Source: Bacteroidales bacterium (GTDB lineage Bacteria > Bacteroidota > Bacteroidia > Bacteroidales > WCHB1-69). From it: a stretch of 64,000 nucleotides of DNA. The notes under the pieces were generated by a model. That model worked only from the letters and a program-made list of their open reading frames with translations, was not told the DNA's origin and did not search any database. How positions within the stretch are numbered: the stretch's first letter is position 1; the number at the start of each line of letters is the position of its first letter. The stretch is from contig JAGBPS010000024.1 in assembly GCA_017633255.1 (NCBI GenBank), positions 12,451-76,450 of the forward strand, read 5' to 3'. Below, one piece after another: positions 10,470 through 56,295 of this stretch. The position numbers and the translations under genes were made by a program.

Positions 10470-10555
10470 ATTTAGTTGTTTTTAGGGGACGGGTACTGCC
10501 CCGTCGTTACAATTTTTAAAGACGCGCGGCCGTGCGACTCTACATTAATTTCTGC

Positions 10556-11861: not shown

Positions 11862-12355
11862 TTTTGTTTCCTTTTATAAGTTTGAAAACGCAAATCGTAA
11901 ACATTTATTTCATCCTTGGGCACAAATTCGTCTTCTACCAGGTCCCATTCGTCCATATTCAATTCAGGGAAATACACATCTGCCTGAAAATCAGACAAGA
12001 TGCGAGTCAGGTACAAAGTTTCGATTTTATCGATGAACAATTTGTAGATGGTAGCACCACCCATGATGAACGGCTGTTCATCGTTCTCCACCAATTGCAT
12101 CGCTTCCTCAATGGAAAATGCCAACTCACAATTCTGATAATCAGCGTCTTTATTGAGGGTAATGACAATATTCCGGCGATTGGGAAGGGGCTTTTTCGGC
12201 AAAGACTCCCAGGTGCGGTCACCCATCAGCACCGTATGGCCAGAGGTCAACGTCTTGAAACGTTTCAAATCGACCGGCAAATGGCACAACAATTGGTTCT
12301 TGTAGCCCAACTCATAGTTATTGCCCACAGCGGCAATCATGGAAAGATTATTCAT
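11858..12355 (-). CDS. folA: Dihydrofolate reductase
   Basis: 165 aa. N-terminus MIAAVGNNYELGYKNQLLCHLPVDLKRFKTLTSGHTVLMGDRTWESLP. 4-nt overlap with the downstream gene. Confidence 0.9.
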   Translation of the reverse strand: MNNLSMIAAVGNNYELGYKNQLLCHLPVDLKRFKTLTSGHTVLMGDRTWESLPKKPLPNRRNIVITLNKDADYQNCELAFSIEEAMQLVENDEQPFIMGGATIYKLFIDKIETLYLTRILSDFQADVYFPELNMDEWDLVEDEFVPKDEINVYDLRFQTYKRKQK

Positions 12356-12363
12356 AGTCCGGA

Positions 12364-13386: not shown

Positions 13387-13435
13387 AATATTCAGCTATT
13401 TAAAGATTGACGCTAATACTACATGTTAAAGTTTG

Positions 13436-13443
13436 CAAAGTTA
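13436..13443 (-). promoter_or_regulatory. -7 promoter box TAACTTTG (minus strand) for the mreB-folA operon
   Basis: Plus-strand CAAAGTTA, 50 nt upstream of the mreB start. Confidence 0.5.
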
Positions 13444-13540
13444 CAAAAACTTTTTATATAAAGGCATCCTGCTGAATGTTTTTTGTTTTTTTTGGAAAAT
13501 GAAAATTTTTCAGGCTTACTCTCTTTTCAGATAAAAACCT

Positions 13541-13548
13541 TATTTTTG
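13541..13548 (+). promoter_or_regulatory. -7 promoter box TATTTTTG
   Basis: TAnnTTTG match 18 nt upstream of the ATG at 13566. Confidence 0.5.
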
Positions 13549-13565
13549 CAAAAATTATCCGAAAT

Positions 13566-16028
13566 ATGCTGACCATCGCGCAAATCAAAGATATCTGCCA
13601 AGCGAAGGATTGTCCTTTGTCTGACGAACATGCGGAAATCGAGCTGCTGGCCTTCGACAGCCGCAATGTGCTGATTCCCCAAAAAACCCTGTTCTTCGCC
13701 ATCACCACCGCCAAAAACGACGGTCATAACTATATTCCGGAATTGTGGCAACAGGGAGTGAAAAACTTCATTATCACCCGACCCATAGCCGAATTTTCCC
13801 ATTTTTCCGGTGCCAACTTCCTCCAAGTCGAAAATGCGGTTTCCGCCTTGCAGCAAATCGCCGCTTTTCACCGCCAGCAATTCGACTATCCCGTCATTGG
13901 CATCACCGGCAGCAACGGGAAAACCATTGTGAAAGAATGGCTTAGCCAGATGCTAGCCCCCGAATTCCATGTGGTGAGAAACCCCAACAGCTACAACTCC
14001 CAGATTGGCGTGCCCATGTCGGTATGGCAGATGGCACAACGGCACAACCTGGCCATTTTCGAGGCAGGCATCTCCCAACCCGGCGAGATGGAGAAACTGG
14101 AGGCTGTCATCCAGCCCACCATCGGTATCCTCACCAATATCGGCGCCGCCCACAACGAGTTTTTTCATAATAACGAAGAGAAACTGATTGAAAAGACCAA
14201 ACTCTTCCAAAATTGTCAGAAAGTAATTTACAACGCTGACAACCCGCTGATTCACAATTATTTCAAGCAGAACGAGCGCTTCAAAGGAAAAACCATTTCC
14301 TGGGGTCAGGCGGAGGATGCGGACTATCACATCGACTTTGTCAACACCGCCGACATGCACACCATAGTCTCGCTGAACGGACAACTGATTGACATTCCCT
14401 TCAGCGATGCCGGCTCCATCGAAAACGCCCTGCATGCTATCGTGCTGATGCTGCAATTGAATTTCACCCTTCCGCAAATCAAGCAGAAACTGCACAATCT
14501 TTCCGCAGTTTCCATGCGTATGGAGATGATCGAAGGCATCAACAACTCAGTCATCATCAACGACACTTATAGTCTGGATATGAGTTCGTTACGCATCGCC
14601 TTGAACTTTCTGAACGCCCAAACCCAGATGATACGCAAAACCGTCATCATCTCCGATTTTGAGCAAGTGGGAAATTTGGACACAGACGATTATCAGAAAA
14701 TAAACAACCTGCTGATTAACAAAGGAATAACAAGACTCATCGCCGTTGGTGCCGGCTTTTATGCCCACCGTTCTGTCTTCAGTTTTCCCGAACAAAGTTT
14801 TTACCACAACACTGAAGAACTGGTGGCCAATCTCAACCAAGAGCCTTTCCACCAAGAAGTTATACTGGTAAAAGCGGCCCGTAGCTACCGCTTCGAGAAG
14901 GTGGTAGCCGCCCTACAGTACAAGACCCACCAGACGGTGCTCAATGTCAACCTGCCCGCCATCATCCACAATCTGAGCTATTACCGTTCGCTGCTGAAAC
15001 CCGAGACCAAAATGGTGGCGATGGTGAAAGCACAGTCTTACGGTTTGGGCGATGTGGAGCTGATCAACGAGCTGATATACCATCATGTGAATTATTTGGC
15101 AGTGGCCTATACCGACGAGGGAATCCGTCTGCGCAAACGAAACATCACCAAGCCTATTATCGTGTTGGGCGCCGAAGCGCACAGTTTCGAGGCCATGATT
15201 GCCTATCGGCTGGAACCCGAGATTTTCAACTTCCACTATCTGGAACAACTGACGGAATTATTGGAGCAACATTCTGATATTGAATTATTTAAAATCCACA
15301 TCAAGCTGGATACCGGCATGCACCGCTTAGGCTTTGACGAAGGAGATCTACCCCGCTTGGTGGATTTTATCCAGCAGCATCCGAAGTTGAAGGTCGCCTC
15401 CATTTTCTCGCACTTGGCCGCTGCCGAAGACCCCGACGAGGACGACTTCACCCGTGGACAAATCGCATTGTTCGACCGCATGAGTTCCTATCTGATCGGC
15501 CAGTTTGATTACCCCATTCTGCGGCACATCCTCAACTCCGCGGGCATCAGCCGCTTCCCCGAAGCGCAATACGACATGGTGCGTCTGGGCATTGGCCTCT
15601 ATGGCTTCTCGGCTGTGCCGCAAGACCAAGCGCATTTGCAGAACACGGTAACCTTGCGCACCGTCATCACGCAGGTCAAAACCATCCCCACCAACGAAAC
15701 CATCGGCTATAATCGGAGCTATAAAACACTTAAAAAAAGCAAGATAGCTATCATTCCCATCGGTTATGCCGACGGCTATCCAAGAGAATTGGGCAATGGT
15801 GTCGGCAAGGTCTTTGTAGCAGGCCGGCTGGTGCCCATTGTGGGCAAAATCTGCATGGACATGTGCATGGTGGATGTCACCGGCTTGGATGTCAAGGAAG
15901 GCGACGAGGTAATTGTTTACGGCGACCCCAATCCGCTGGACAAAGTGGCGGCCTCCATCCACCGCATCCCCTACGAGCTGATGACTGCGATTTCCAAGCG
16001 GGTGCAGAGGATTTACATTAAAGAGTGA
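13566..16028 (+). CDS. murF/alr: Bifunctional UDP-MurNAc-pentapeptide synthetase (MurF) / alanine racemase (Alr) fusion
   Basis: 820 aa. The N-terminal half has the Mur ligase P-loop GITGSNGKT. The C-terminal half has the alanine racemase PLP motif (VKAQSYGLG) and the racemase C-terminal domain. This fusion is common in Bacteroidota. Confidence 0.9.
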   Translation: MLTIAQIKDICQAKDCPLSDEHAEIELLAFDSRNVLIPQKTLFFAITTAKNDGHNYIPELWQQGVKNFIITRPIAEFSHFSGANFLQVENAVSALQQIAAFHRQQFDYPVIGITGSNGKTIVKEWLSQMLAPEFHVVRNPNSYNSQIGVPMSVWQMAQRHNLAIFEAGISQPGEMEKLEAVIQPTIGILTNIGAAHNEFFHNNEEKLIEKTKLFQNCQKVIYNADNPLIHNYFKQNERFKGKTISWGQAEDADYHIDFVNTADMHTIVSLNGQLIDIPFSDAGSIENALHAIVLMLQLNFTLPQIKQKLHNLSAVSMRMEMIEGINNSVIINDTYSLDMSSLRIALNFLNAQTQMIRKTVIISDFEQVGNLDTDDYQKINNLLINKGITRLIAVGAGFYAHRSVFSFPEQSFYHNTEELVANLNQEPFHQEVILVKAARSYRFEKVVAALQYKTHQTVLNVNLPAIIHNLSYYRSLLKPETKMVAMVKAQSYGLGDVELINELIYHHVNYLAVAYTDEGIRLRKRNITKPIIVLGAEAHSFEAMIAYRLEPEIFNFHYLEQLTELLEQHSDIELFKIHIKLDTGMHRLGFDEGDLPRLVDFIQQHPKLKVASIFSHLAAAEDPDEDDFTRGQIALFDRMSSYLIGQFDYPILRHILNSAGISRFPEAQYDMVRLGIGLYGFSAVPQDQAHLQNTVTLRTVITQVKTIPTNETIGYNRSYKTLKKSKIAIIPIGYADGYPRELGNGVGKVFVAGRLVPIVGKICMDMCMVDVTGLDVKEGDEVIVYGDPNPLDKVAASIHRIPYELMTAISKRVQRIYIKE

Positions 16029-44067: not shown

Positions 44068-44829
44068 TCACCGGATAGAAAAGATCCCGTAAACTGCGGA
44101 GCCGCTGCCGGACATAGAGGCATAAACCGCACCACGGGAATAAAAGTCATCTTTGATTTCTTGCAACACAGGGTATTTGGGGAACAAGGAATCCTCAAAC
44201 TCATTATGGATGCAATGTTTCCATTCCGTTATGGGACGTTTTATCAGTTCATTTAGACTGATTGCGGGCTGCTGGGGATGCACACCGGCATAAGCCTCTT
44301 TGGTGGAAATGGAAAAATCGGGTTTGATCATCTCTATTCTGTAAGCGGACAAGTCCAATTCCAGTGGCGTCATGATCTCGCCACGGCCTGTGGCATATAC
44401 GGGACGGTTTTCAATGAAAAATGCTGTGTCGCTACCTAATTGGGCGGCCAAATCCCGCAATTCCGTGGAAGAGAGTTGCAATTGAAACAGCTCGTTGTAC
44501 ATTTTCAGAGCGAAAGCCGCATCGGCAGAACCGCCACCCAAACCAGCTCCGAAAGGAATATTTTTGGTCAATTTGATATCCACCCCATCAATATCGAACT
44601 GCCTCTGCAACAGACGGAAAGCTTTGACACAGAGATTGTCCTCGTCGGCGCAAAGATTTTCCACATTCTGCACCGAAAGCTTCACTCCTTTCTCTATCCT
44701 ATTGATTTCCAGCTCATCGCATAAAGTATGAACCGGATAAAACACCGTTTGCAGCTCATGAAAGCCGTCGCTCCGTTTGGAGACGATATAGAGGCCGAGA
44801 TTGATTTTGAAATTGGGATGGGTAATCAT
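44068..44829 (-). CDS. ispE: 4-diphosphocytidyl-2-C-methyl-D-erythritol kinase
   Basis: ATG at 44829 gives MITHPNFKINLGLYIV...; the tracked TTG at 44841 is an alternative start. GHMP kinase motif PFGAGLGGGSADAA. Confidence 0.9.
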   Translation of the reverse strand: MITHPNFKINLGLYIVSKRSDGFHELQTVFYPVHTLCDELEINRIEKGVKLSVQNVENLCADEDNLCVKAFRLLQRQFDIDGVDIKLTKNIPFGAGLGGGSADAAFALKMYNELFQLQLSSTELRDLAAQLGSDTAFFIENRPVYATGRGEIMTPLELDLSAYRIEMIKPDFSISTKEAYAGVHPQQPAISLNELIKRPITEWKHCIHNEFEDSLFPKYPVLQEIKDDFYSRGAVYASMSGSGSAVYGIFSIR

Positions 44830-44940
44830 ACTGAAAACCAATATTATATTGAATGATTATAGACAGTTGGTTCCATTTTCTGTGAGATTTCCATGAGAGT
44901 AAGCTGTCATAGAGAGAAAGCAGTCATAGAGAGGGAGCAG

Positions 44941-44974
44941 TTATAACAAAATAGGCTGTCATCTCTGACAGCCT
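44941..44974 (-). terminator. Hairpin terminator 3' of tRNA-Asp
   Basis: AGGCTGTCA-TCTC-TGACAGCCT (9-bp stem, 44953..44974). On the minus strand it is followed by ATTTTGTT. Confidence 0.6.
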
Positions 44975-44982
44975 TTGTTTTG

Positions 44983-45057
44983 CGGTCCGGACGAGACTCG
45001 AACTCGCGACCTCCTGCGTGACAGGCAGGCATTCTAACCAAACTGAACTACCGAACC
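44983..45057 (-). tRNA. tRNA-Asp (anticodon GTC)
   Basis: The reverse complement reads GGTTCGGTAGTTCAGTTTGGTTAGAATGCCTGCCTGTCACGCAGGAGGTCGCGAGTTCGAGTCTCGTCCGGACCG. It has a 7-bp acceptor stem, anticodon stem CCTGC/GCAGG with loop CTGTCAC, and T-arm GTTCGAGTC. CCA is not encoded. Confidence 0.95.
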
Positions 45058-45076
45058 TTCGTTTGTTTTGAGGATG

Positions 45077-45084
45077 CAAAGATA
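45077..45084 (-). promoter_or_regulatory. -7 promoter box TATCTTTG (minus strand) for tRNA-Asp
   Basis: Plus-strand CAAAGATA, 20 nt upstream of the tRNA 5' end. Confidence 0.55.
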
Positions 45085-45690
45085 CAACTTTTTTTAATGC
45101 AAAAACATTATGATGTAATTTTTTCTTCTAAATTTTATAACATTCTTATTTTTAGCTATTTATATTAATCTGATTATTTTCTGATTAGTCAAAACATTTC
45201 ACAAAAACAGCTTATGTTCATGGTTTTTTCGGAAAAATTCAGAATAATTCCACTTTTTTGCAATATTTCTGCCCTGATGATGACACCTACCTGCCGCGAA
45301 AGGCACGAGCCCAAACAGCCTGATTGGAACGTGCTGGATATGTACAGGGTAAGAAGAAGGTATGAAGAGGGTAGGCTAAAGGGTGCTTCCGACACATGTA
45401 AATAATAATCGAAAAGTATACCACTGTAATAATGCAAAAGTATACCATTCGAGCAGATTGTACTTTCCCCTTTTGCAAGCCTTGCAAAAATCTGAAACAC
45501 AATATTCTTTGCTGTATCTTTGTGGCAGATAAACGATTTTTTCAAATCATTCATTTTCTTATTTGTATACTAAATGATTTGTATATATTTTCCCTTTCGT
45601 ATAATATAAAAACGAACAGAACAAATACTCTTTTTTGTATCTTTGCATGTCGTAAATAAAACAAAAACAGATCCGCAAATTTAATATTCC

Positions 45691-45698
45691 TACTTTTG
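45691..45698 (+). promoter_or_regulatory. -7 promoter box TACTTTTG for the island operon (further boxes at 45515..45522 and 45638..45645)
   Basis: TAnnTTTG match 25 nt upstream of the ATG at 45723. The tracked TTG start at 45696 lies inside this box. Confidence 0.5.
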
Positions 45699-45722
45699 CA
45701 TAGTCAACGAAATATTTTCCTC

Positions 45723-46787
45723 ATGGCAACCTGGCAGAAAATAAAGATACAACGCGAGAATGGTGAGCTTGCTGAAGCGCAAGCGCCAGTAATCGTATCG
45801 GCAAGTCGTAGCACAGACATTCCTGCGTTCTATGCCGACTGGTTCTTCCATCGTTTGAAGGTGGGTTATTCAGCGTGGACCAACCCTTTCAACGGAGTGA
45901 AGAGTTTCGTTTCGTACGAGAAATGCCGATTTATCGTGTTTTGGTCGAAGAATCCCGAACCGTTACTGTTGCATCTTGACGAGCTGAATGAACAAGGTAT
46001 CGGCTGCTATATCCAATATACTCTGAATGATTATGTCTCTGAAGGTTTGGAGAAAAATGTTCCAGCTTTAGAAAAGCGTATCGACACTTTCAAGCAACTT
46101 GTGGACAAATTTGGCAAAGGTCGTGTTATATGGCGTTTCGACCCTCTGATTCTGACAGACAAGATTAGTTTGGATGATTTGTTGCATAAGGTAGAAAACA
46201 TCGGTGATCAACTCCAGGGTTACACCGAGAAACTTGTATTCAGTTATGCCGATATAGCCGCCTATCGGAAGGTGAAATCTAATCTTGATAAAAACCATGT
46301 AAGCTATACGGAATGGACTACTAACCAGATGGAGGAATTTGCTAAAGAACTATCGAAACTCAACCAAAAATGGAACTATCAGCTGGCAACCTGTGGCGAG
46401 AAGATTGACATAGAGCGATATGGAATTCATCACAATCGCTGTGTGGACGATGATTTAATGATACGATTGGCCTATAAAGACAAGGCTTTGATGGATTTCC
46501 TCGGAGTAGAGATAAAAACAGTTGAAAACTCATTGTTTGGGGCAGAACCGATTCCCGCCAATGCCATCATGCTTAATGATACTCAATTCGCTATCAAGAA
46601 AAAAAACAATCAGGACAAAGGCCAGCGACAGTTTTGTGACTGTATGGTGAGCAAGGACATCGGTGAGTACAACACCTGTCCGCACCTGTGCGAGTATTGC
46701 TATGCCAATGTGAGCAAAGAAAATGCGACAAAGAATTATAAACAACATGAAATGAACCCATTGGGGGAAACTATAACTGGGAAATGA
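45723..46787 (+). CDS. DUF1848-family protein with C-terminal radical-SAM-like CX3CX2C cysteine cluster
   Basis: 354 aa from MATWQKIKIQ. The C-terminus reads QFCDCMVSKDIGEYNTCPHLCEYCYAN (C-P-H-L-C-E-Y-C). The overall pattern (SASRSTDIPAFYADWF..., RFDPLI) fits DUF1848 as I remember it. Confidence 0.7.
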   Translation: MATWQKIKIQRENGELAEAQAPVIVSASRSTDIPAFYADWFFHRLKVGYSAWTNPFNGVKSFVSYEKCRFIVFWSKNPEPLLLHLDELNEQGIGCYIQYTLNDYVSEGLEKNVPALEKRIDTFKQLVDKFGKGRVIWRFDPLILTDKISLDDLLHKVENIGDQLQGYTEKLVFSYADIAAYRKVKSNLDKNHVSYTEWTTNQMEEFAKELSKLNQKWNYQLATCGEKIDIERYGIHHNRCVDDDLMIRLAYKDKALMDFLGVEIKTVENSLFGAEPIPANAIMLNDTQFAIKKKNNQDKGQRQFCDCMVSKDIGEYNTCPHLCEYCYANVSKENATKNYKQHEMNPLGETITGK

Positions 46788-46788
46788 T

Positions 46789-48480
46789 ATGGTTATCGAA
46801 CAAAACACCAACTACGCTTACAAACTAAAGCATATAGACCGCCCGACTTTTGAGGCCGTAAGGGACTTGTCCATTGAATTCTATCGCAGTTTGCCTCAGG
46901 AGTTACAGGACGAATTGTTTGAGACCTTAAACCGTGGCGTTGATATCTTAGATAGCGAACCACAGCTGACGACTTACATGTTCTCATACGGAAAGATGCA
47001 TAAGGCCAAATTGGAATATGCTTTTGACAATCTGACAGAAGGTTTTCTTTTGCAAGATGAAATAAACATCATTGACTATGGCTGCGGGCAGGCCATCGGC
47101 ACGATGTGCTATGCGGATTTTCTTCGTAATAACGGATATACGCAACAGATTAAGACCATTACATTAATTGAACCTTCTGAAATAAGCCTGAAACGGGCTG
47201 CACTTCACATTTCAGCATTCTTCCCTAATGCAGAAATTAAGACCGTGAACAAAACTTTTGATGAGTTAAACAAAGATGACATCTATTATGAAGAAGACAT
47301 TCCTACGCTGCATATTCTTTCCAATGTTTTAGATATTTTGGATTTCGATATTAATAAGTTTTCAAAATTGGTAAAAAGCAGTTTGAACGGATTTAACCAA
47401 TTTGTATGTGTAGGGCCTTTTTTTAATGATTCCCAAAAAGATGATCGAATGGTTGTATTTCGATCACTTAGAAACGAAGATGAATATTTCAACAAGATTC
47501 TAGACAAATTCGAATTAACCCCAGAAAAAGCATGGACAGCACAAATACTCATTTTCTCAGTTGGAGAAATAGCCAAAACTAAAGTTCCTATTACAGTAAC
47601 AAACGAGGAGATTGAAAATGACATAGAAGATAAATGTGGTGTATATAGCAAAGATGGTCAAAAATTGCTAAAGTGTACAGACTCACATATGGGTACATAT
47701 ACAATAAAAAAAGGCACAAAGGTGATATGTAAGAATGCTTTTGAAGGTTGTTTGTTCAGTCAAATAATCATACCCGATTCAGTCGTAAAAATTGAATGGC
47801 AAGCTTTTTTGGCATGTGAATTTTTGCAAACAATCACCATACCCAACTCTGTTACAAGTATCGATTATAATGCATTTGGTTTATGTGAATCCTTGCAACG
47901 AATCAACATTCCGGATTCGGTTTCTTTTTTGGGACCATCAACTTTTCATCGATGCATCTCTTTACAACAAGTCAAAATTTCCAATTCGTTAACATGTATA
48001 GACTACATGACTTTTTGTGAATGCACTTCTTTAAATCAAGTCCTCATACCAAATTCAACCACAATTTTAGGTGATCATGTATTTTCAAATTGCAAATCCT
48101 TGAAACAAATAATAATTCCCAACTTGGTAACATATATAGGGATGGGTGCTTTTTCAAACTGCACATCTCTAGAGCACATTACTCTTTCCAATTCATTACA
48201 TAACATTGGACCTTTCGCTTTTGAAAAATGCCAATCTTTGAAAACAATTGCTTGCCCTGACTCAGTTAAGCACATATATGCCGGAGCATTTTCCGAGTGT
48301 GTAAACTTACAACAAATCATTATTTCTGATTCGGCAACTGAGATTGGTGACGAGATTTATTATGAAAATGTTTTTAATAATTGTATGTCTTTACGACAGA
48401 TTATCATTCCCAAAGGAAGTACGGAGAAATTTAGGGAAATGCTTGATAAAGAATTGTGGGATAAACTAATAGAGGAATAG
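46789..48480 (+). CDS. Cytoplasmic fusion protein: N-terminal class I SAM-methyltransferase-like domain + C-terminal BspA-type leucine-rich repeats
   Basis: 563 aa with no signal peptide. It has Rossmann motif I IIDYGCGQAIGT, an acidic beta-2 end TLIEPSE, and LSNVLD. From about residue 283 (47635..48433) there are ~10 units of ~23 aa of the form I.IP.SV..I...AF..C.SL... The ATG lies 1 nt after the DUF1848 stop. Confidence 0.7.
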   Translation: MVIEQNTNYAYKLKHIDRPTFEAVRDLSIEFYRSLPQELQDELFETLNRGVDILDSEPQLTTYMFSYGKMHKAKLEYAFDNLTEGFLLQDEINIIDYGCGQAIGTMCYADFLRNNGYTQQIKTITLIEPSEISLKRAALHISAFFPNAEIKTVNKTFDELNKDDIYYEEDIPTLHILSNVLDILDFDINKFSKLVKSSLNGFNQFVCVGPFFNDSQKDDRMVVFRSLRNEDEYFNKILDKFELTPEKAWTAQILIFSVGEIAKTKVPITVTNEEIENDIEDKCGVYSKDGQKLLKCTDSHMGTYTIKKGTKVICKNAFEGCLFSQIIIPDSVVKIEWQAFLACEFLQTITIPNSVTSIDYNAFGLCESLQRINIPDSVSFLGPSTFHRCISLQQVKISNSLTCIDYMTFCECTSLNQVLIPNSTTILGDHVFSNCKSLKQIIIPNLVTYIGMGAFSNCTSLEHITLSNSLHNIGPFAFEKCQSLKTIACPDSVKHIYAGAFSECVNLQQIIISDSATEIGDEIYYENVFNNCMSLRQIIIPKGSTEKFREMLDKELWDKLIEE

Positions 48481-48528
48481 TGCAAATAGATTTTTTAATA
48501 TTTTTATGATAATCAGAACACATAAAAC

Positions 48529-49806
48529 ATGAAAATAAAAAAGTTAATAATCAACAACTTTCGAGCATTTAAGCATGCAGAAATAGATTTTGATGATTTT
48601 AGTTGTATTATTGGCAAAAACGACACGGGCAAATCAACAATCTTGGCAGCATTAGAATGGTTTTTTAATTCTAACAAGGAATTAGACGAAAACGATTTTG
48701 CAGCAGCTAGTTTTGATTGGAGTGAGTGCGAACATCCTGCATTTCATGATGAAATAGCAGGTGAAACATTTCAAGGAGAGACTGTTAAAGAGTTTATTTA
48801 TGATGGTTTTTGCATATCAGTTGATGTGTATTTCAGTGACGCAAACCTTCCAAATAGGACAGAAGAATCTGATTTCATCTTCAACCATGACTTTGTGTTA
48901 AAAGATGGTAATATCTGTATAAGTAAATACATGTATCACCCGTATAAAGATATAAATCATCCTTCTATTGGAAAACAGATGGGATATCGCATGAAAAATT
49001 GTTTTTTTGAAAAAATGCAAAAACCATTTTCCGATTGTACTATTGAAGAATTGAAAACAGTATATAATGAGATTAGGAACAACGCTGATGATTTATGCAA
49101 AAAATTATATCATTTAGAGGAAGAACGTCAAAATAAAAAAAATAGAGGTGTAGGGACATTGGCTATTAATACCGAAATACGAGATGAAGTATTAAGAATA
49201 AAAAGACTTATATGTTCTGAATTATATAATCACTACAGTAACAAAGGTGAAAAGACTTGTGAAAAATGGATGCCTTTTGATAATATAGATAGCATTGAAT
49301 TTCATTTCGGTTTTGATTTACCTCAATTTATATTATATACATCAAAAACGCCAACAAACGATTATCTGAACAAGTTATTTACACCATATAATGCCATCGG
49401 ATTATACAAGTCTATTGAAAAAGCCAAAGTACACACAACAGAAAAGCTTTCTGAATTCCTAAATTTAAATGGCCTGAATGAAAATATACATATTAAAGAA
49501 AATGAAAAAATAGACTTGTTTACAAAAGACAGTTTGATATTCAAACATAATGACTTGCCATTGAACATTCCTCTCAAAAACAGAGGGGAGGGTTTTCAGC
49601 TAAAGATAAAAAATGCTGTATTTAGGTTGCTTACAGAAACTCGGACAAGAAACCAAATCAATATCATTTTTGCTTTTGAAGAACCCGAAACACATTTGCA
49701 TCCGTCTGCTCAAATTGAAATGTATCAAACACTAAAGGCACTATCAGAAAATATTAATTATCAGGTGATTATTACAACACATTCCCCTTATATTGTTAAA
49801 AATTAG
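48529..49806 (+). pseudogene. ABC/AAA_15-type ATPase (OLD/PrrC/RecF-like), reading frame terminates 7 codons after the H-loop; probably continues in 49800..50273 after a -1 shift
   Basis: Walker A GKNDTGKST, signature-like NRGEGFQ, Walker B IIFAFEEPETHLHP, H-loop ITTHSPYIVKN-stop. The stop lies just after an A5 run (49798..49802). Confidence 0.6.
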
Positions 49807-49820
49807 CTCAAAACGACATA

Positions 49821-50273
49821 GTGCCTATTGTAGTAAAACAAGAAGCAGCCCAAGAATCAAAAATAAGCAAACTTGACGAACGTGTTTTGCCATACATTTC
49901 AATGAACGAAATCAATTATATAGCTTTTGAAGAGCCGTCGATAGAGTATCACATTGAATTGTATGGTTATATGCAAAACAAGTTGGACAAAACTGTTCGG
50001 GAATTAGACGATTGGCTAAAAGGGTGCGGAATCATCAATGGTGATAACCTATATGACTGGTATGATACGAGAAATTTAGAAAAAACAGAAGACAAAAAAA
50101 CTTTACCTTATTGTGTTCGTAATAATATTGACCATCCATTGGTTGATGATGCCTGCGATTCAAGAAAACATAATGCTTATGTGAATAACAGTCAATTCAA
50201 CAATAGTGATTTGATTAGAAAAAGCATTGAAATTATGCGGGAAGCGATAATCAACAATGTAGAATTTATATGA
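49821..50273 (+). CDS. 150-aa ORF: probable C-terminal continuation of the ATPase, carrying a HEPN-like Rx4H motif
   Basis: This frame is open from 49800 (KLAQNDIVPIVVKQE...). The motif CVRNNIDHP has CGT at 50118..50120 and CAT at 50133..50135. There is no independent ATG until codon 28. Confidence 0.45.
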   Translation: MPIVVKQEAAQESKISKLDERVLPYISMNEINYIAFEEPSIEYHIELYGYMQNKLDKTVRELDDWLKGCGIINGDNLYDWYDTRNLEKTEDKKTLPYCVRNNIDHPLVDDACDSRKHNAYVNNSQFNNSDLIRKSIEIMREAIINNVEFI

Positions 50274-50313
50274 GAGAACATTGAAACCATGCAAATAATA
50301 AAAACACAACAAG

Positions 50314-50571
50314 ATGAACGATAACGAAAAAGCATTAATGCATCACTTTGAGATGATTGCACATTCGCAAGGAACGATGCAATTTCTATACAATTTGTTT
50401 GGCGGGGGCTTTGTTGCCAAACAACAAGCAAAAGAAACAATTGATTTTTGCATTGCAAAAATGAAACGGGATATTGAAAGCAATCCAAATTTGACACGAG
50501 AGCAAAAAGATCATGAGATTTCAATTAGAGAATGTTGGTTTAATGCAATGAAAAATTCATTGGGATTGTAA
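50314..50571 (+). CDS. Hypothetical small helical protein (85 aa), last gene of the island operon
   Basis: ORF only, co-directional, 40 nt after the previous stop, and followed by a hairpin. No recognisable motif. Confidence 0.4.
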   Translation: MNDNEKALMHHFEMIAHSQGTMQFLYNLFGGGFVAKQQAKETIDFCIAKMKRDIESNPNLTREQKDHEISIRECWFNAMKNSLGL

Positions 50572-50576
50572 CTTTA

Positions 50577-50619
50577 GCATAATAATCCCGTATGAAATTA
50601 ACGCACACTATTATTATGC
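50577..50619 (+). terminator. Hairpin at the end of the island operon
   Basis: GCATAATAAT (50577..50586) is the exact reverse complement of ATTATTATGC (50610..50619), with a 23-nt loop. It starts 6 nt after the stop at 50571. Confidence 0.5.
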
Positions 50620-50743
50620 ATGAATTAATTAGCAGAAAAGTAATAGCAAATTTTTGCTTCCTTAATTTAAGCGTAAATCTCGGCAACTGATAGTTGTCAA
50701 TATGAGGAAATAGATTAAAATAATATCGAAAGAGAAGACAACC

Positions 50744-50824
50744 ATGCTAATCAAACAAAATACCAACCACATATACAAGCTAAAATATATAGAAAAACCG
50801 ACCTTTGACATGTTCGAAGTATGA
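50744..50824 (+). pseudogene. 27-codon relic of a second methyltransferase-LRR-type gene (5' end only)
   Basis: Translates MLIKQNTNHIYKLKYIEKPTFDMFEV-stop, compared with MVIEQNTNYAYKLKHIDRPTFEAVRD at 46789. That is 14 identities in 26 residues plus conservative changes. Confidence 0.65.
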
Positions 50825-50863
50825 CCATTCCTCAAATAGTTAGTGTATTTAAAAATTTGTGCG

Positions 50864-50871
50864 TAACTTTG
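50864..50871 (+). promoter_or_regulatory. -7 promoter box TAACTTTG
   Basis: TAnnTTTG match 9 nt upstream of the ATG at 50880. The tracked start at 50859 lies upstream of the box. Confidence 0.5.
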
Positions 50872-50879
50872 CAAACGAT

Positions 50880-52358
50880 ATGAACAAAACAACAATCATA
50901 GAATCATTGCTCAAGGGTGAGCATATCACACTGGAAGCAAAACGGGCCGAGAATGATTTACCCAGATCGGTTTGGGAGACCTATTCGGCATTCGCCAATA
51001 CACACGGCGGATTGATTTTGCTTGGTGTTATTGAAAATCTAAAGGAGAAAGACATTAACAAGCGTTTCACCATCACTGGCGTTGATGATGCCGAGAAAAT
51101 ACGCAAAGACTTCTGGAATATTGTCAATAATGCAGAGAAAGTGAACATCAATCTACTTAAGGACGAGGATGTTGAAACGATTGACATGGATGGTAAAACC
51201 GTAGTAGCTATTAATGTGCCAAGGGCTGACTACACGGTACGCCCTGTATATATCAATAACAATCCTCTTCGGGGAACTTTCAAGCGTAACCACGAGGGCG
51301 ACTATCACTGTGCTGAACACGAAGTAAGGATGATGATGCGCGATGCCAACGAGGCTGGTAACGATGGCATGTTACTGGAATATTACACGATGGATGATAT
51401 TGATATTCCAACTCTGGAGCGCTACAGAAACCATTTCAGCAGCAGACACCCTGATCATGTGTTTAACAGTCTTGAACATAAGTCATTTCTAAAAGAACTG
51501 GGCGGCTATCATGTTGACAGAAAAGACCAAAGCGAATGTTTAACCATGGCTGGTTTATTGATGTTCGGCAAAGGCCATCCCATTCGTGAACGCTTTGAGA
51601 ACCTGCGATTAGATTATATTGACAAATCTGGGTTGATTGGTGATCAGCGATACAGCGACCGCCTAACCTACGACGGCACATGGGAAAACAATCTCTTCAA
51701 TTTTGTTACAATGGTATTGCCCAAGTTGCTGAGAGATTTACCGAGACCATTCAAGATGGATGGTATAGTGCGTGAAGACGACACTCCTCAACACAAGGCT
51801 GTTCGTGAAGCTCTGACAAATGCCATTATCCACGCAGACCTGATGATAAACGGGGTTCTGAAAGTGGAGAAATATGACGATAAACTTGTACTCACAAACC
51901 CCGGATTACTGAAGCTCCCCGTAGAACAAATCTATGCAGGCGACGAATCGAGAGCAAGAAACCAGCACATGCAAACCATGTTCCGCATGATAGGATTCGG
52001 GGAAAACTTGGGATCTGGTTTTCCCTTAATATTGAGTGCCTGGAATGAGAAACACTGGCTAAAACCGGAGTTAATTGAACAGCCAGAGCTAATGCAGGTA
52101 AAACTCATTCTGACAATTGAGGCAAAAGATGTCACAAAAGATGTCACAAAAGATGTCACAAAAGAACTATCTGAAAGACAGGTGCTTATATTAGAATTGA
52201 TAGCAGAAAATGCTATGGCGACAATATCAGAAATGTCACAAAAGACAGGGGTTGCACCTAGAACCATTATACGAGATATTGAGCATTTGCAATCCTTGGG
52301 CATTCTTGTTCGAATTGGTGGCCGCAAGGAAGGTCATTGGGAAATTAGCAATTTATAG
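50880..52358 (+). CDS. AlbA_2 (Schlafen-like) DNA-binding domain / HATPase_c_4-like / C-terminal winged-HTH protein
   Basis: 492 aa from MNKTTIIESLLKGEHITLEAKRAENDLP...AFANTHGGLILLGV (AlbA_2 pattern). The C-terminal wHTH reads LSERQVLILELIAENAMATISEMSQKTGVAPRTIIRDIEHLQSLGIL. Confidence 0.7.
   Translation: MNKTTIIESLLKGEHITLEAKRAENDLPRSVWETYSAFANTHGGLILLGVIENLKEKDINKRFTITGVDDAEKIRKDFWNIVNNAEKVNINLLKDEDVETIDMDGKTVVAINVPRADYTVRPVYINNNPLRGTFKRNHEGDYHCAEHEVRMMMRDANEAGNDGMLLEYYTMDDIDIPTLERYRNHFSSRHPDHVFNSLEHKSFLKELGGYHVDRKDQSECLTMAGLLMFGKGHPIRERFENLRLDYIDKSGLIGDQRYSDRLTYDGTWENNLFNFVTMVLPKLLRDLPRPFKMDGIVREDDTPQHKAVREALTNAIIHADLMINGVLKVEKYDDKLVLTNPGLLKLPVEQIYAGDESRARNQHMQTMFRMIGFGENLGSGFPLILSAWNEKHWLKPELIEQPELMQVKLILTIEAKDVTKDVTKDVTKELSERQVLILELIAENAMATISEMSQKTGVAPRTIIRDIEHLQSLGILVRIGGRKEGHWEISNL
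52125..52160. repeat. In-frame 12-nt tandem repeat AAAGATGTCACA x3 (KDVT x3)
   Basis: Read directly. A fourth partial copy, ATGTCACAAAAGA, follows about 65 nt downstream. Confidence 0.9.
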
Positions 52359-52614
52359 CATATGACAATGCCCACCATCCTCCTCATAATCAGCATATAC
52401 CTTGTCCTCAACCTCGCCTTGTTGGCTTTTAGGTGCACTGAAGTATAAGGAATAATATTACCCCGTTGGAGGCTGTGCGAACATGATTCCATGAGGTACG
52501 GCACCGCCGTGAGATTTATGCCACTACCTCGCCCTTTTTTCCGCTCCTTATCCATCACAGGGAATAAGTGTGAAGTACTATTTTATTCAGTGTAATATAT
52601 AAAAGAAATTTTTG

Positions 52615-52622
52615 TACTTTTG
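52615..52622 (+). promoter_or_regulatory. -7 promoter box TACTTTTG for nifJ
   Basis: TAnnTTTG match 116 nt upstream of the ATG at 52738, implying a long leader. Confidence 0.45.
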
Positions 52623-52737
52623 CACGCTTATTGGGGAGACTGGAGTGATGACTGTTTTTCAAGAAATATATAACAAAATCGAATTCATCAATAATCAACC
52701 AAAATACTAATCCATAAATATTTAACATCCAAAAACT

Positions 52738-55700
52738 ATGGCAGAAAAAAAATTTATGACATGCGACGGTAACTGCGCTGCAGCGCACGTAGCCTACATG
52801 TTTAGCGAAGTCGCCGCTATCTATCCTATCACCCCCTCATCACCGATGGCAGAGTACATCGACGAGTGGAGTGCTGGCGGCAGAAAGAACATTTTCGGTG
52901 AGACCGTGAAAGTGGTCGAAATGCAATCAGAAGCCGGTGCTGCCGGTGCCGTTCACGGTTCACTGCAGGCTGGTGCCCTGACCACCACCTACACCGCTTC
53001 ACAGGGTCTGTTGCTGATGATCCCCAACATGTACAAGATTGCCGGCGAATTGCTGCCCGGCGTATTCCACGTGTCAGCACGTGCATTGGCTGCTCAGGCA
53101 CTGTCTATCTTCGGTGACCACGCCGACGTGATGAGCGCCCGTCAAACTGGTTTCGCCATGCTGGCTACCGGTTCCGTACAGGAAATCATGGACCTGGCTC
53201 CTGTTGCCCACCTGGCAGCTATCGAAGGCCGCGTTCCTTTCCTGCACTTCTTCGACGGTTTCCGTACCTCTCACGAAATCCAGAAAGTAGAAGCCGCTGA
53301 TCAAAGCAAAATCGAAAAATTGGTCAACTGGAAAGCCCTCAAGGAGTATCGTGAGCGCGCCCTGAATCCGGAACACCCCGTGACCCGCGGTACCGCCCAG
53401 AACCCCGATATCTATTTCCAGACCAGAGAGTTGCAGAACAAGTACTACGACGCTCTTCCCGACATCGTTGCCAAATACATGAAGAAACTGAGCAAGATCA
53501 CCGGTCGTGAATATGCTCCCTTCACCTTCTACGGCGCAGAAGACGCTACCGACATCATCATCGCTATGGGCTCCATCACCGACGTCATCAAAACCGTCAT
53601 CGACAAGGAGAACAAAGCAGGCAAGAAACTCGGTCTCGTCAGCGTGCACCTCTATCGTCCGTTCAGCGTGAAGTACCTCGGCCAAGTGCTGCCTGAGACC
53701 GTCAAGCGCATCTGCGTCCTCGACCGTACAAAGGAGCCCGGCGCCAATGGCGACCCGCTGTATCTGGATGTTGTCGAAGCCTTCGCCAACTGCAAGGACA
53801 TCCCAGCTGCCAACAAACCTTTGATTATCGGTGGTCGCTTTGGTCTCTCCTCAAAAGACACCACTCCTGCTCAGATTCTGGCAGTTTACAAGAACCTCGC
53901 CGCTCCCAAACCGATGAACCAGTTCACCGTGGGTATCAACGACGATGTTACCCACCGTTCTCTCAAGGTTGGCAAGGAAATCTCTATCCTGCCGAAGGGC
54001 ACTTTCGAAGCCAAATTCTATGGCCTCGGCGCTGACGGTACTGTAGGTGCTAACAAGAACAGTATCAAGATTATCGGTGACAACACCAATAAATACAGCC
54101 AGGCTTATTTCGACTATGACTCCAAGAAGTCAGGCGGTTATACCTGCTCACACCTTCGTTTCGGTGACCAGCCCATCCTGGCTCCTTACTTGGTAGGTAC
54201 TCCCGACTTCGTGGCCGTTCATGTTCCTTCTTACCTGAAGAAATATGACTGTCTGCGCGGTCTGAAGAAAAACGGTACTTTCCTTTACAACTCACCGTGG
54301 AGCGTGGCCGACACCAAGAAACATCTTCCCGATTTCGTGAAGAAATACTTGGCTCTCAACAATATCAACATGTACATCATCGACGCCACCAAGATTGCCG
54401 CTGAGATCGGTTTGGGCAACCGTACCAACACCATCCTGCAGAGCGCATTCTTCAAGATTTCAGGCGTTATTCCTTACGACCTCGCTGTGGAACAGATGAA
54501 GAAATTCATCGTGAAATCATACGGCAAGAAGGGTGAGGATATTGTCAACATGAACTATGCAGCTGTTGACCGTGGTGGTGAAATCACCAAGGTTGACATT
54601 CCCGCTGAATGGGCTAAGTTGGAATGCAGCACCGACTTCGTTTTCGAACACAACGACAGCGATCCCGAATTCATCAACAAGGTGATGCGCCCGATGGTTG
54701 CTCAGTGCGGTAACGACCTGCCTGTGAGCGCCTTCAAGGAAATCGTTGACGGTACTTTCCCCGCTGGTACCACCGCTTACGAGAAACGTGGTGTGGCTAC
54801 CGTAGTTCCCGAATGGAATCCTGCCAACTGTATCCAGTGTAACCAGTGCTCTTTGGTATGTCCTCACGCAGCTATCCGTCCCGTAGTAATGACTGATGCT
54901 GAGTTGAAGAAAGCTCCTAAGGGCATGGCTGCCATCGACATCAAAGCTCCGAAGGAATTTGCCGGTATGCATTTCCGCATGCAGGTTTCCGTAATGGACT
55001 GCACCGGTTGCGGCAACTGCGCCGACGTATGTCCCGCCAAGGAGAAAGCTTTGGTGATGAAACCTTTCGAAAGCCAGCTTGACGAAGCCAAGAACTGGGA
55101 TTACAGCCAGAAGAAAGTTACCTACAAAGACAACCTCATCGACAAATACGCTACTGCCAAGAACAGCCAATTCGCACAGCCTCTGTTCGAGTTCTCAGGC
55201 GCTTGCGCTGGTTGCGGCGAGACTCCGTACATCAAGACCATCACCCAACTGTTTGGTGAGAGAATGATTGTGGCTAATGCTACCGGCTGCTCCTCCATCT
55301 ATGGTGGTTCAGCACCTGCAACTCCTTACTGCAAGAACTACAGAAGCGGCAAGGGTGTGGCTTGGGCCAACAGCTTGTTCGAAGACAATGCCGAATTCGG
55401 TCTTGGTATGGCTACCGCTACCCGCAAGATGCGCGACCGCGTGGAACGCGTCATGAGAGAAGCTATCGCCAACTGCGACTGCTGCAGCACTGAACTGAAA
55501 GCCATGTTCCAGGAATGGATTGACAACCGCGAATGCGGTATGAAGACCGCTGAGTTGGCCGACAAGATTGTGGCCGCTTGCGAGAAATGCGGTTGCGACT
55601 ACTGCAAGCAGATTGTTGACCTGAAAGACCACTTGGTGAAGAAATCACAGTGGATCTTCGGTGGTGACGGTTGGGCTTACGACATCGGTTTCGGCGGTTT

Positions 55701-56295
55701 GGACCATGTATTGGCCAGCGGCGAAGACGTGAACGTACTCGTACTCGACACCGAAGTTTATTCTAACACTGGTGGACAGTCCTCAAAGGCTACTCCGGCA
55801 GGTGCTGTCGCCAAATTTGCCGCTTCTGGTAAGAAGGTGCGCAAGAAAGACCTCGGCATGATTGCCAAGAGCTACGGCTATGTGTATGTGGCACAGGTAG
55901 CTATGGGCGCTTCCCAGGCTCAGTACTTCAAGGCCATCAAGGAAGCTGAAGCTTATCCTGGACCGTCATTGATCATCTGCTATGCTCCCTGTATCAACCA
56001 CGGTATCAAGATTGGTATGGGTCACTCACAGCTCGAAGAGAAGCTCGCCGTTGATTGCGGTTACTGGCACCTGTGGCGCTTCAACCCCGCCGAGGAAGAG
56101 GCCGGCCAGAACGGTTTCCACTTGGACAGCAAGGAACCCAACTGGGCCGACTTCCAGAAATTCATCATGGGCGAGGTCCGTTACAACTCCCTGATGAAGA
56201 CCTTCCCGGAAGAAGCCAAAGAACTTTTCGCCAAGACCGAGCAGTTCGCGAAACTGAGATACGAAGGATATAAGAAGTTGAGTGAAGGGAAATAA
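52738..56295 (+). CDS. nifJ: Pyruvate:ferredoxin (flavodoxin) oxidoreductase
   Basis: 1185 aa with two ferredoxin-type clusters (CIQCNQCSLVCP, CTGCGNCADVCP) and the TPP motif GGDGWAYDIGFGG. Confidence 0.95.
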   Translation: MAEKKFMTCDGNCAAAHVAYMFSEVAAIYPITPSSPMAEYIDEWSAGGRKNIFGETVKVVEMQSEAGAAGAVHGSLQAGALTTTYTASQGLLLMIPNMYKIAGELLPGVFHVSARALAAQALSIFGDHADVMSARQTGFAMLATGSVQEIMDLAPVAHLAAIEGRVPFLHFFDGFRTSHEIQKVEAADQSKIEKLVNWKALKEYRERALNPEHPVTRGTAQNPDIYFQTRELQNKYYDALPDIVAKYMKKLSKITGREYAPFTFYGAEDATDIIIAMGSITDVIKTVIDKENKAGKKLGLVSVHLYRPFSVKYLGQVLPETVKRICVLDRTKEPGANGDPLYLDVVEAFANCKDIPAANKPLIIGGRFGLSSKDTTPAQILAVYKNLAAPKPMNQFTVGINDDVTHRSLKVGKEISILPKGTFEAKFYGLGADGTVGANKNSIKIIGDNTNKYSQAYFDYDSKKSGGYTCSHLRFGDQPILAPYLVGTPDFVAVHVPSYLKKYDCLRGLKKNGTFLYNSPWSVADTKKHLPDFVKKYLALNNINMYIIDATKIAAEIGLGNRTNTILQSAFFKISGVIPYDLAVEQMKKFIVKSYGKKGEDIVNMNYAAVDRGGEITKVDIPAEWAKLECSTDFVFEHNDSDPEFINKVMRPMVAQCGNDLPVSAFKEIVDGTFPAGTTAYEKRGVATVVPEWNPANCIQCNQCSLVCPHAAIRPVVMTDAELKKAPKGMAAIDIKAPKEFAGMHFRMQVSVMDCTGCGNCADVCPAKEKALVMKPFESQLDEAKNWDYSQKKVTYKDNLIDKYATAKNSQFAQPLFEFSGACAGCGETPYIKTITQLFGERMIVANATGCSSIYGGSAPATPYCKNYRSGKGVAWANSLFEDNAEFGLGMATATRKMRDRVERVMREAIANCDCCSTELKAMFQEWIDNRECGMKTAELADKIVAACEKCGCDYCKQIVDLKDHLVKKSQWIFGGDGWAYDIGFGGLDHVLASGEDVNVLVLDTEVYSNTGGQSSKATPAGAVAKFAASGKKVRKKDLGMIAKSYGYVYVAQVAMGASQAQYFKAIKEAEAYPGPSLIICYAPCINHGIKIGMGHSQLEEKLAVDCGYWHLWRFNPAEEEAGQNGFHLDSKEPNWADFQKFIMGEVRYNSLMKTFPEEAKELFAKTEQFAKLRYEGYKKLSEGK

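Follow-up and report, generated by a model that had tools for sequence, protein, structure and literature searches.

A horizontally acquired mosaic island in an uncultured Bacteroidales genome carries a conserved DUF1848/methyltransferase-like gene pair with a candidate role in defence

What kind of element occupies the AT-rich interval between a tRNA-Asp gene and nifJ in the genome of an uncultured gut or rumen member of the Bacteroidales? The stretch analysed here, which we call the window, comprises 64,000 nucleotides (nt) of contig JAGBPS010000024.1 (assembly GCA_017633255.1). An initial annotation, made from sequence alone, had placed in it an accessory island whose genes encode a DUF1848 protein, a protein joining a methyltransferase (MTase)-like domain to leucine-rich repeats (LRR), an ABC ATPase, an 85-amino acid (aa) open reading frame (ORF) and, after the relic of a second MTase-LRR gene, a Schlafen-like protein. 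All of these genes are present in the segment, the ATPase in split form (Table 1). On balance, we read the interval as a horizontally acquired mosaic island of defence type built of three modules: the DUF1848 gene with its MTase-like partner, the ATPase with orf85, and the Schlafen gene.

Table 1. Features of the island and its borders, in window coordinates
Feature	Coordinates	Strand	Evidence and remarks
tRNA-Asp(GTC)	44982-45057	-	ARAGORN; Rfam tRNA 65.5 bits; left landmark, outside the insertion, 5' side faces the island
Inserted accessory island	45167-52546		7,380 bp, 36.8% G+C; homology break against relatives L138-L147
AT-rich leader	45167-45722		556 bp; three + strand TAnnTTTG boxes (45515, 45638, 45691)
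DUF1848 protein, 354 aa	45723-46787	+	PF08902 2e-92
MTn-LRR protein (gene 2), 563 aa	46789-48480	+	MTase-like N-domain and BspA-type LRR; LRR_5 1e-57
ABC/AAA_15 ATPase, N-terminal 425 aa, frameshift-truncated	48529-49806	+	AAA_15 4e-42
A5 run, 1 nt shorter than A6 allele	49798-49802	+	alignment with contig L004
ATPase C-terminal tail, 150 aa, out of frame	49803-50273	+	HEPN-like CVRNNIDHP, R..H at 50118-50135
orf85, 85-aa helical protein	50314-50571	+	in 13 of the 80 genome loci, and in the window; also L089, L153, L156, L157
AT-rich inverted repeat after orf85	50577-50619	+	-9.3 kcal/mol, z = -1.54, no T tract
Relic of second MTn-X gene, 27 codons	50744-50824	+	about 80% nt identity to 46789-46860
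Schlafen (AlbA_2)-HATPase_c_4-winged helix-turn-helix (wHTH) protein, 492 aa	50880-52358	+	SLFN_AlbA_2 2e-11, HATPase_c_4 8e-13, HTH_DeoR 1e-6
nifJ	52738-56295		right-hand landmark

The interval departs sharply in composition from its surroundings. The segment 45058-52614 has 36.5% G+C, against 46.2% upstream and 47.3% downstream, and along the window G+C runs at about 0.44-0.52 before 44750, falls to 0.28-0.44 across 44750-52750 and rises to 0.54-0.56 in nifJ; two hand counts by which the AT-richness had been argued, 16/60 G+C at 48541-48600 and 35/60 at 53101-53160, were both exact on recount. Relatives of the locus were found by scanning metagenome contigs with the flanking ispE protein. 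Ten loci that also have the arginase gene were obtained (nifJ was seen in nine of them and the tRNA-Asp gene in nine), and the island is absent from all ten. The flanks of these island-free relatives are close to those of the window (ispE 84-98% and nifJ 97-99% identity). Given that the segment is missing from relatives whose flanking proteins are 96-99% identical, both the insertion and the fall in G+C go far beyond chance. The spacing from tRNA-Asp to nifJ is about 0.7 kb in L138, L139, L144 and L145 (L and P numbers are our own labels), and in L140-L143 it is 1.0-2.3 kb and filled by small unrelated cargo. Nucleotide homology to L138-L147 stops at 45166 and restarts at 52547, which sets the limits of the insertion.

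The island is thus a true insertion of accessory status. It was horizontally acquired and replaced about 0.4 kb of the tRNA-Asp/nifJ spacer, which is a small hot spot. The setting proposed in the initial annotation, an accessory island between tRNA-Asp and nifJ, is borne out by the empty sites or other small cargo that alignment with relatives revealed; its limits, 45058-52614, are not those of the insert, which is shorter at both ends. Every assembly with an identical ispE also carries the island. There are no flanking direct repeats at the island borders and no integrase domain among the island proteins. A tRNA-targeting integrative island was considered and rejected, on the grounds that there is neither an integrase nor, at the distal border, a direct repeat of the tRNA 3' end, and that the island lies on the 5' side of the tRNA. 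The cargo seen in the spacer of relatives consists of a KilA-N-like 272-aa protein with a lipoprotein, or of a 212-aa secreted protein (L141 241-2561; L142 862-2422; L143 3886-5397).

Which of the genes belong together was judged from related loci in other Bacteroidales species. The gene that follows DUF1848 encodes an N-terminal MTase-like domain, here named MTn, fused to LRRs; proteins with this domain and any C-terminus are referred to as MTn-X. Gene 2 starts 1 nt after the DUF1848 stop, and we take the two genes to be translationally coupled. A full DUF1848 gene is present in 63 of 77 loci with a full MTn match; it lies upstream on the same strand in 58 and no more than 60 nt away in 40, and 13 loci have a gene between the two, most often a YhcG/DUF1016 nuclease. 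In the reverse direction, MTn was found in five of seven distinct loci picked by DUF1848 alone (80-89% identity). The identities of DUF1848 and MTn to the window proteins correlate (r = 0.70, p = 2e-10), and L062, L054 and L034 carry the pair without other co-directional genes. DUF1848 and MTn-X therefore form a conserved gene pair. Since nifJ or ispE lies near none of 80 genome loci (0/80), this pair is a conserved mobile unit and not the set of syntenic core genes that had been named as the contrary case; chromosomal context differs even where DUF1848 is 88-89% identical.

The MTn domain covers residues 1 to about 255 and carries the motifs DYGCGQ, LIEPS, FDxL and SNVLD. D96-Y-G98-C-G100-Q is invariant in 64 MTn homologs, and E128 and D158 are nearly so (at least 90%). 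An AlphaFold2 (AF2) model of the MTn-LRR protein, with a predicted local distance difference test (pLDDT) score of 85.4 overall and above 90 across the MTase-like domain, shows a class-I Rossmann MTase fold followed by an LRR solenoid. Foldseek matched the MTn fold to CmoA/YecO, lmo1582, METTL6 and Bud23 (prob 1.0). The top fold matches for the LRR part are BACOVA_04585 and similar Bacteroides and Faecalibacterium surface LRR proteins, and the BspA-type LRR model PF13306 scores 193.9 bits against a cut-off of 27.7. The best of the curated MTase models, Methyltransf_23, stays below threshold (17 bits, cut-off 27), and PDB sequence and profile searches with the MTn domain gave no match. MTn is thus a separate family without a Pfam model, with a predicted fold like that of class-I S-adenosylmethionine (SAM)-dependent methyltransferases. 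Clustered at 90% identity, the family counts 338 clusters among 5.8 billion proteins; at 50% identity it counts 1,376 among 1.8 billion representatives. Relatives occur in 175/185,579 species genomes (one genome per species), and the hosts are nearly all rumen or gut Bacteroidales, including Rikenellaceae, Muribaculaceae, Prevotella, Bacteroidaceae, Paludibacteraceae and Salinivirgaceae.

On this conserved N-domain the C-terminal domains are swapped. The C-termini of 65 MTn-X proteins from different species contain LRR_5 in 45 cases, Sel1 in 20 and TPR in 8; others have WG repeats, an SF1 NERD/UvrD-like helicase (L018, L064) or a DEAD-box helicase (L156), and the proteins range in length from about 350 to 1,258 aa. 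Fusions of the MTase-like domain that adjoin DUF1848 include a 1,563-aa DEAD-box protein (L156 11358-16049) and an 884-aa NERD/UvrD-like protein (L018 6407-9058); in L102 (4399-7551) a NERD-MTase gene and then an SF1 helicase gene adjoin DUF1848. Apparent fusions of DUF1848 with MTn (P0334, P0354 and others) turned out to be cases in which the LRR or Sel1 end of one MTn-X gene runs on into the next copy.

The DUF1848 protein matches PF08902 over the full-length model (310.2 bits, cut-off 30.5). Seven of its cysteines (C224, C240, C305, C307, C319, C323 and C326) are invariant in 39 homologs down to 27% identity. In the same homologs the arrangement C319-x3-C323-x-Y325-C326 is invariant, a CX3CXΦC motif that stands at the C-terminus and not at the N-terminus. 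CX3CXΦC is the canonical radical-SAM signature. Because of the seven invariant cysteines, this motif included, DUF1848 is probably a two-cluster, non-canonical radical-SAM enzyme, in which C224, C240, C305 and C307 could hold the auxiliary cluster. The radical-SAM core model PF04055 has no match in the protein, and neither single-sequence nor profile searches found sequence relatives in the PDB. The AF2 model, built from a shallow alignment (pLDDT 64.6), has an alternating β/α, barrel-like form.

DUF1848 also occurs apart from MTn. Without MTn, homologs of 27-69% identity are encoded on 43 IMG/VR contigs; GenBank phage records hold further ones, among them 'uncultured phage' genomes of 735 kb. 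On the huge-phage-like contigs L119, L120, L122, L124-L126 and L131 (IMG/VR, 52-435 kb) and in LR756501.1 and LR756503.1 (GenBank) the homologs, about 28-37% identical, share a conserved gene block that includes an RNA ligase and two HAD_SAK_2 ('Swiss army knife') domains of RNA repair; in L117 and L118 DUF1848 directly follows NrdD and a 153-aa gene. In Planktothrix the gene lies two genes from AlkB, and in P. distasonis it adjoins a DNA/RNA non-specific endonuclease and a flavodoxin. On a Roseburia plasmid (NZ_CP135163.1; L152 5337-7957) a DUF1848 gene of 29% identity ends a co-directional run of a 4Fe-4S protein, a macro protein (protein-ADP-ribose hydrolase) and Sir2; with this run may be compared the ADP-ribosylglycohydrolase genes that recur in the Bacteroidales islands. 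In L158 (12316-15499) DUF1848 is in two pieces of 69 and 341 aa with an AAA_21 ATPase gene and a 272-aa gene between them, which may be a two-gene insertion. PHROGs holds no family for DUF1848, MTn or orf85.

Beyond the pair, the composition of related islands varies. L007, L008 and L157 show all four genes in the order of the window (DUF1848, MTn-LRR, ATPase, 85-aa ORF), and the ATPase is present in 5/81 neighbourhoods. The co-occurrence of DUF1848, MTase-LRR and ATPase that had been envisaged thus holds strongly, and across Bacteroidales families, for the first two, and not for the ATPase. Related islands often have pieces of the DUF1848 3' end ahead of additional MTn copies, MTn genes in tandem, and split genes, a pattern that indicates recombination-driven turnover at the conserved DUF1848-3'/MTn-5' junction. 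The island is a mosaic and not one fixed operon or obligatory four-gene system.

As to whether such genes sit near defence genes, the related islands do hold neighbours of defence type. Their YhcG/DUF1016 PD-(D/E)xK nuclease corresponds to the PADLOC candidate PDC-S02 (3e-117), DUF6602 is a PD-(D/E)xK nuclease with NucC-like matches, and NERD/UvrD helicase fusions match PADLOC C3a187 and RTasNERD-Hel; ADP-ribosylglycohydrolase, RhuM, caspase/CHAT and McrB genes lie downstream of DUF1848. A small radical-SAM protein and a Cys-rich 85-aa partner follow MTn-Sel1-LRR proteins of 1,250 aa. This run was seen in L069, L071, L073, L076, L077, L080, L082 and L083 (at about 10000-15000; Muribaculaceae, Prevotella and Bacteroides) as DUF1848, an MTn-Sel1-LRR protein of about 1,250 aa, a radical-SAM protein of about 205 aa and usually a Cys-rich protein of about 85 aa, followed in some of these loci by the DUF6602 nuclease.

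In the second module the ATPase gene is interrupted by a frameshift. Contig L004 has an A6 allele and encodes an intact ATPase of 581 aa, and the window has A5. The A5 allele is present in at least four independent assemblies and is therefore a real polymorphism, not a read error of the window. Programmed or transcriptional slippage was considered and rejected, the run being short and the A6 allele being present in the population. Of the single ABC ATPase gene with a HEPN-like tail that had been described, the domain and the motif stand, whereas the gene itself is split by the 1-nt deletion. The ATPase matches PADLOC Old (6e-35) and GajA (5e-24) and PDB entries 6p74 and 8wy4 (about 6e-13). Its nearest solved proteins are OLD, GajA, PtuA and AriA, the matched residues being only 1-69 and 293-436. 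A Walker A motif lies at the N-terminus, and signature, Walker B and H-loop lie near residues 380-420. In the tail, R531-NNID-H536 is shared without change by five aligned homologs of 35-76% identity, and C.RN.[ILVM]DH is present in 106/120 ATPase family members; this Rx4H motif conforms to the Rx4-6H pattern of HEPN proteins.

Some members of this ATPase family are themselves joined to repeats. Among the matches listed, six also have LRR_5, and several are about 1,000 aa long with an N-terminal LRR_5 array. The arrays of P0423 and P0457 open with the same cap sequence as that found after MTn in gene 2, and the gene 2 LRR is 36% identical to the ATPase fusion P0423 (E = 3e-56). One LRR-ATPase fusion and one non-fused member stand alone in defence-type contexts (RhuM, HipBA, a reverse transcriptase (RT) gene). 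The same LRR module with two enzymatic partners supports a sensor or specificity role for the repeats, with the ATPase as a putative independent effector that is inactivated here. The 85-aa protein encoded after the ATPase has no significant family match; its gene recurs as a marker of where the variable region ends.

Between orf85 and the Schlafen gene, the proposed relic of a second MTase-LRR gene was recovered as 27 codons matching the start of gene 2. In L089, whose DUF1848 is 89% identical, the order is DUF1848, an unknown 348-aa protein, orf85, an intact 399-aa MTn gene and the Schlafen gene. The window and L089 match at 85-90% on both sides of a gap of about 1.29 kb that removes the 399-aa MTn gene. 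Since L089 has an intact MTn gene at the position of the relic, the relic was left by a deletion of about 1.29 kb.

The third module, a Schlafen-like AlbA_2 ATPase-wHTH gene with its own promoter, is as first described, both in its domains and in its own TAACTTTG box (TAnnTTTG) at 50864. The gene most likely starts at ATG 50880. SLFN_AlbA_2 scores 44.9 bits against a cut-off of 25.3, EHITLEAK (Ex4ExK) lies near the N-terminus, and the protein matches PDB 2kyy at 1.4e-11. Prokaryotic Schlafens protect against phages by tRNA cleavage (2025 preprint, PMC12330615), and the Slfn-HisKinase-HTH type is the second commonest architecture, with 19.2% of the prokaryotic Schlafen (pSlfn) family (PMC12330615). 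By its domains, SLFN_AlbA_2 with Ex4(E/D)xK, HATPase_c_4 and wHTH, the island gene is assigned to this described anti-phage family and to its HisKinase-HTH type, from which it differs in coming from an uncultured Bacteroidales and in having a (KDVT)n linker repeat. At 52123-52165, within the linker between HATPase_c_4 and wHTH, a 12-nt unit (CAAAAGATGTCA...) stands in three exact tandem copies that encode (KDVT)3. In other assemblies the gene is annotated with 488 aa instead of 492, which, as a comparison of alleles by length, would fit one repeat unit fewer.

The initial annotation had held that the gene set matches no defence system, and this is true in part. No complete named-system model of PADLOC fits the island and the DUF1848/MTn pair has no named system, whereas the AlbA_2 gene is a described pSlfn and a link between DUF1848 and an MTase is known from UG25. 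UG25 reverse transcriptases with an N-terminal methyltransferase associate with a DUF1848 cluster (Mestre et al. 2022, PMC9226505), and UG25 is the nearest known system to the pair: in both, DUF1848 is partnered with a SAM-MTase domain fused to a second module. UG35, described in the same paper (PMC9226505), pairs an MTase-RT with a UvrD-like helicase, just as some related islands have MTn-NERD/UvrD fusions. The PADLOC models RTasDUF1848 (PDLC03815, which matches the DUF1848 protein at 9.2e-41) and RTasNERD-Hel match proteins of these islands. In contrast to UG25, none of the six island proteins has an RVT or PADLOC RT match, the module fused to MTn is a repeat array or helicase and not an RT, and MTn itself matches no PADLOC RT model, its best match being to a generic methyltransferase (1.5e-3). 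A UG25 defence-associated reverse transcriptase system was therefore rejected for want of an RT in the island, even with its DUF1848 partner present. Our literature search on PF08902 and UG25 returned nothing beyond Mestre et al. (PMC9226505) and no experimental characterisation of UG25.

The ATPase shares its ABC head with OLD, Gabija GajA, Septu-retron PtuA and PARIS AriA, and its standalone relatives lie in defence-island contexts. It differs in having no Toprim and no GajB, AriB or PtuB partner, in its C-terminal domain of about 150 aa with an invariant CVRNxIDHP, and in the N-terminal BspA-type LRR arrays of some members. OLD and Gabija were rejected because the intact 581-aa protein has no Toprim match (E <= 10) and the island no helicase; PARIS was rejected because there is no AriB (DUF4435/Toprim) match and the 'AriA' match spans a 373-position model that resembles the generic AAA_15 profile. 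The architecture of MTn-X recalls Avs/NLR-like STAND proteins and pSlfn fusions, in which a conserved enzymatic domain is likewise joined to hypervariable TPR, LRR or Sel1 repeats or helicases that differ between close relatives. However, MTn-X has no STAND NTPase and has a separate, conserved radical-SAM-like partner, and, unlike the conserved domains of known sensor-effector systems, MTn is of a SAM-methyltransferase-like fold that is not a known effector class.

How might these parts work? From sequence and context we infer that DUF1848 performs radical-SAM chemistry, that the repeats act as sensors and that the ATPase tail is an RNase. In MTn-X, the variable C-terminal domain would be the sensor or specificity part and bind a protein or nucleic acid of the invader, and DUF1848 with the MTn domain would be a conserved SAM-dependent catalytic core that modifies nucleic acid or protein in response. 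Three observations make us lean towards a nucleic acid, probably RNA, as the substrate: the fusions to helicases, a fold like that of RNA methyltransferases, and the RNA-repair genes near DUF1848 in phages. The ATPase with the RNxxxH tail would probably be an ATP-driven RNase effector of the abortive-infection type, disrupted here by the frameshift, and the Schlafen/HisKinase/HTH protein, with its own promoter, would act as a member of the described anti-phage tRNase family. A defence function of the DUF1848/MTn pair is likely on this evidence, and the pair is a credible candidate for a new anti-phage system. A bolder proposal, which we offer tentatively and would not expect to hold in full, is that the two-cluster radical-SAM DUF1848 and its polymorphic MTn partner represent a previously unrecognised class of SAM-dependent conflict systems of anaerobic gut and rumen Bacteroidales, in which a swappable domain would sense and the pair would write or erase a modification on RNA, DNA or protein; the DUF1848 of huge phages would then be a counter-measure or repair enzyme.

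Could the pair instead be a module of nucleic-acid modification or repair without an immune role, in an island that just travels with defence genes? Here DUF1848 would be an oxygen-independent radical-SAM enzyme for repair or de-modification of RNA or DNA, the anaerobe's counterpart of AlkB, and MTn an RNA or DNA methyltransferase recruited by its repeat or helicase domain. The JGI family name for DUF1848, 'DNA repair photolyase', speaks for this, as do the nearest MTase folds, which include the tRNA and rRNA enzymes CmoA, METTL6, Bud23 and RsmG, the very high conservation of DUF1848, its position near two HAD_SAK_2 phosphatase domains and an RNA ligase or after NrdD in the huge-phage-like contigs, and its AlkB, endonuclease-flavodoxin and macro-Sir2 neighbours in Planktothrix, P. 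distasonis and Roseburia. The phage neighbourhoods are, however, loosely linked (3-9 kb apart), the distribution is patchy (about 175 species, with absence from sister lineages), and the neighbours in the islands are nucleases, helicases and genes of abortive-infection type. Protein-binding repeats that are swapped between close relatives are also hard to square with a repair enzyme, and we judge such a role unlikely. We give less credence still to an incidental collection of genes at a recombination hot spot, without functional coupling, whose apparent co-occurrence would stem from a single mobile segment inherited in common by related rumen Bacteroidales. Gene order is variable, with DUF1848 and MTn separable by YhcG, c23 or orf85, pseudogenes and relics are frequent, the tRNA-Asp/nifJ spacer of relatives holds other cargo, and most loci come from one order and one habitat, all of which would fit. 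Yet adjacency within 60 nt persists in 40 loci with different flanks, down to 43% MTn identity and across Rikenellaceae, Muribaculaceae, Prevotella, Bacteroidaceae and Paludibacteraceae; two-gene loci exist (L062, L054, L034), L102 holds NERD-MTase, helicase and DUF1848 together, and UG25, an MTase-RT fusion with a DUF1848 partner, is an independent parallel. The repeats raise one further reading, namely that the MTn-repeat proteins are eukaryote-like LRR/Sel1/TPR effectors of host or inter-bacterial interaction and DUF1848 an unrelated neighbour. BspA-type LRR and Sel1 are typical of host-interaction proteins of gut bacteria, the repeats are hypervariable and the top folds are surface LRR proteins of Bacteroides and Faecalibacterium. 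However, MTn-LRR has no signal peptide and begins with an enzyme domain, there are no secretion-system genes and no type IX secretion system (T9SS) C-terminal domain, cytoplasmic helicases carry the same N-domain, and a cytoplasmic ABC ATPase the same LRR module; we consider this reading very improbable.

The preferred reading, an island of defence type, has to accommodate several findings that weigh against it. DUF1848 is unusually well conserved for an immune gene (61-89% aa identity across families), is also found unaccompanied by MTn, in huge phages as well as in other bacteria, and gave only generic TIM barrels when its low-confidence model was compared with the PDB (template modelling score about 0.27). 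Between five and eight MTn loci have no DUF1848 within 10 kb. The ATPase tail has no Pfam, NCBIfam or PADLOC match, its HEPN assignment being one by motif, and several recurrent neighbours in the related islands are unannotated membrane proteins or lipoproteins. With the ATPase gene disrupted in this genome, and with relics and split genes frequent, some of the island may be in decay.

Three parts belong to kinds already known: the island itself, the Schlafen gene and the ATPase head. The novelty lies in the pairing of DUF1848 with MTn-X proteins of exchangeable domains, in the cysteine signature that DUF1848 carries, and in the family of ATPase tails with LRR fusions; for all of these the functions given above are predictions. 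DUF1848 is a widespread family without known function, seldom mentioned in the papers searched, and it now has a testable frame in its radical-SAM-type cysteines, a conserved MTase-like partner with interchangeable sensor-like domains, its place in defence-type islands and its homologs in huge phages. Should the pair prove to be immune, the known defence repertoire of the dominant gut phylum, where few systems have been put to the test, would gain SAM radical chemistry with a modular sensor of protein or nucleic acid. Were the pair instead a module of repair or modification, it could indicate an oxygen-independent route of nucleic-acid repair in anaerobes. The ATPase with the RNxxxH tail, sometimes LRR-fused, is a second, single-gene candidate.

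The leader of the island has no nucleotide similarity to 140+ related loci upstream of 45700. Public assemblies annotate a minus-strand ORF of 121 aa (45189-45554), without a family hit, as a gene. This ORF is probably no real gene, because the leader that holds it has no counterpart in any related island. The tRNA is the only match of an Rfam scan, and scans for sigma-70 promoters and for terminators stayed at or below chance. The TAnnTTTG motif, the -7 motif of Bacteroidetes, is enriched in the window (71 occurrences against 50 ± 7). On the + strand it stands three times before DUF1848, before the Schlafen gene and, at 52615, before nifJ; the sole further + strand copy within the operon lies inside the ATPase gene. 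After orf85, the inverted repeat is a weak terminator candidate, 18/200 shuffles folding as well. Of the single tight operon with its own box and terminal hairpin that had been proposed, the box at 45691 is present, whereas the hairpin is weak and the four genes are not a fixed system. The placement of the boxes fits one transcription unit and a separate promoter for the Schlafen gene.

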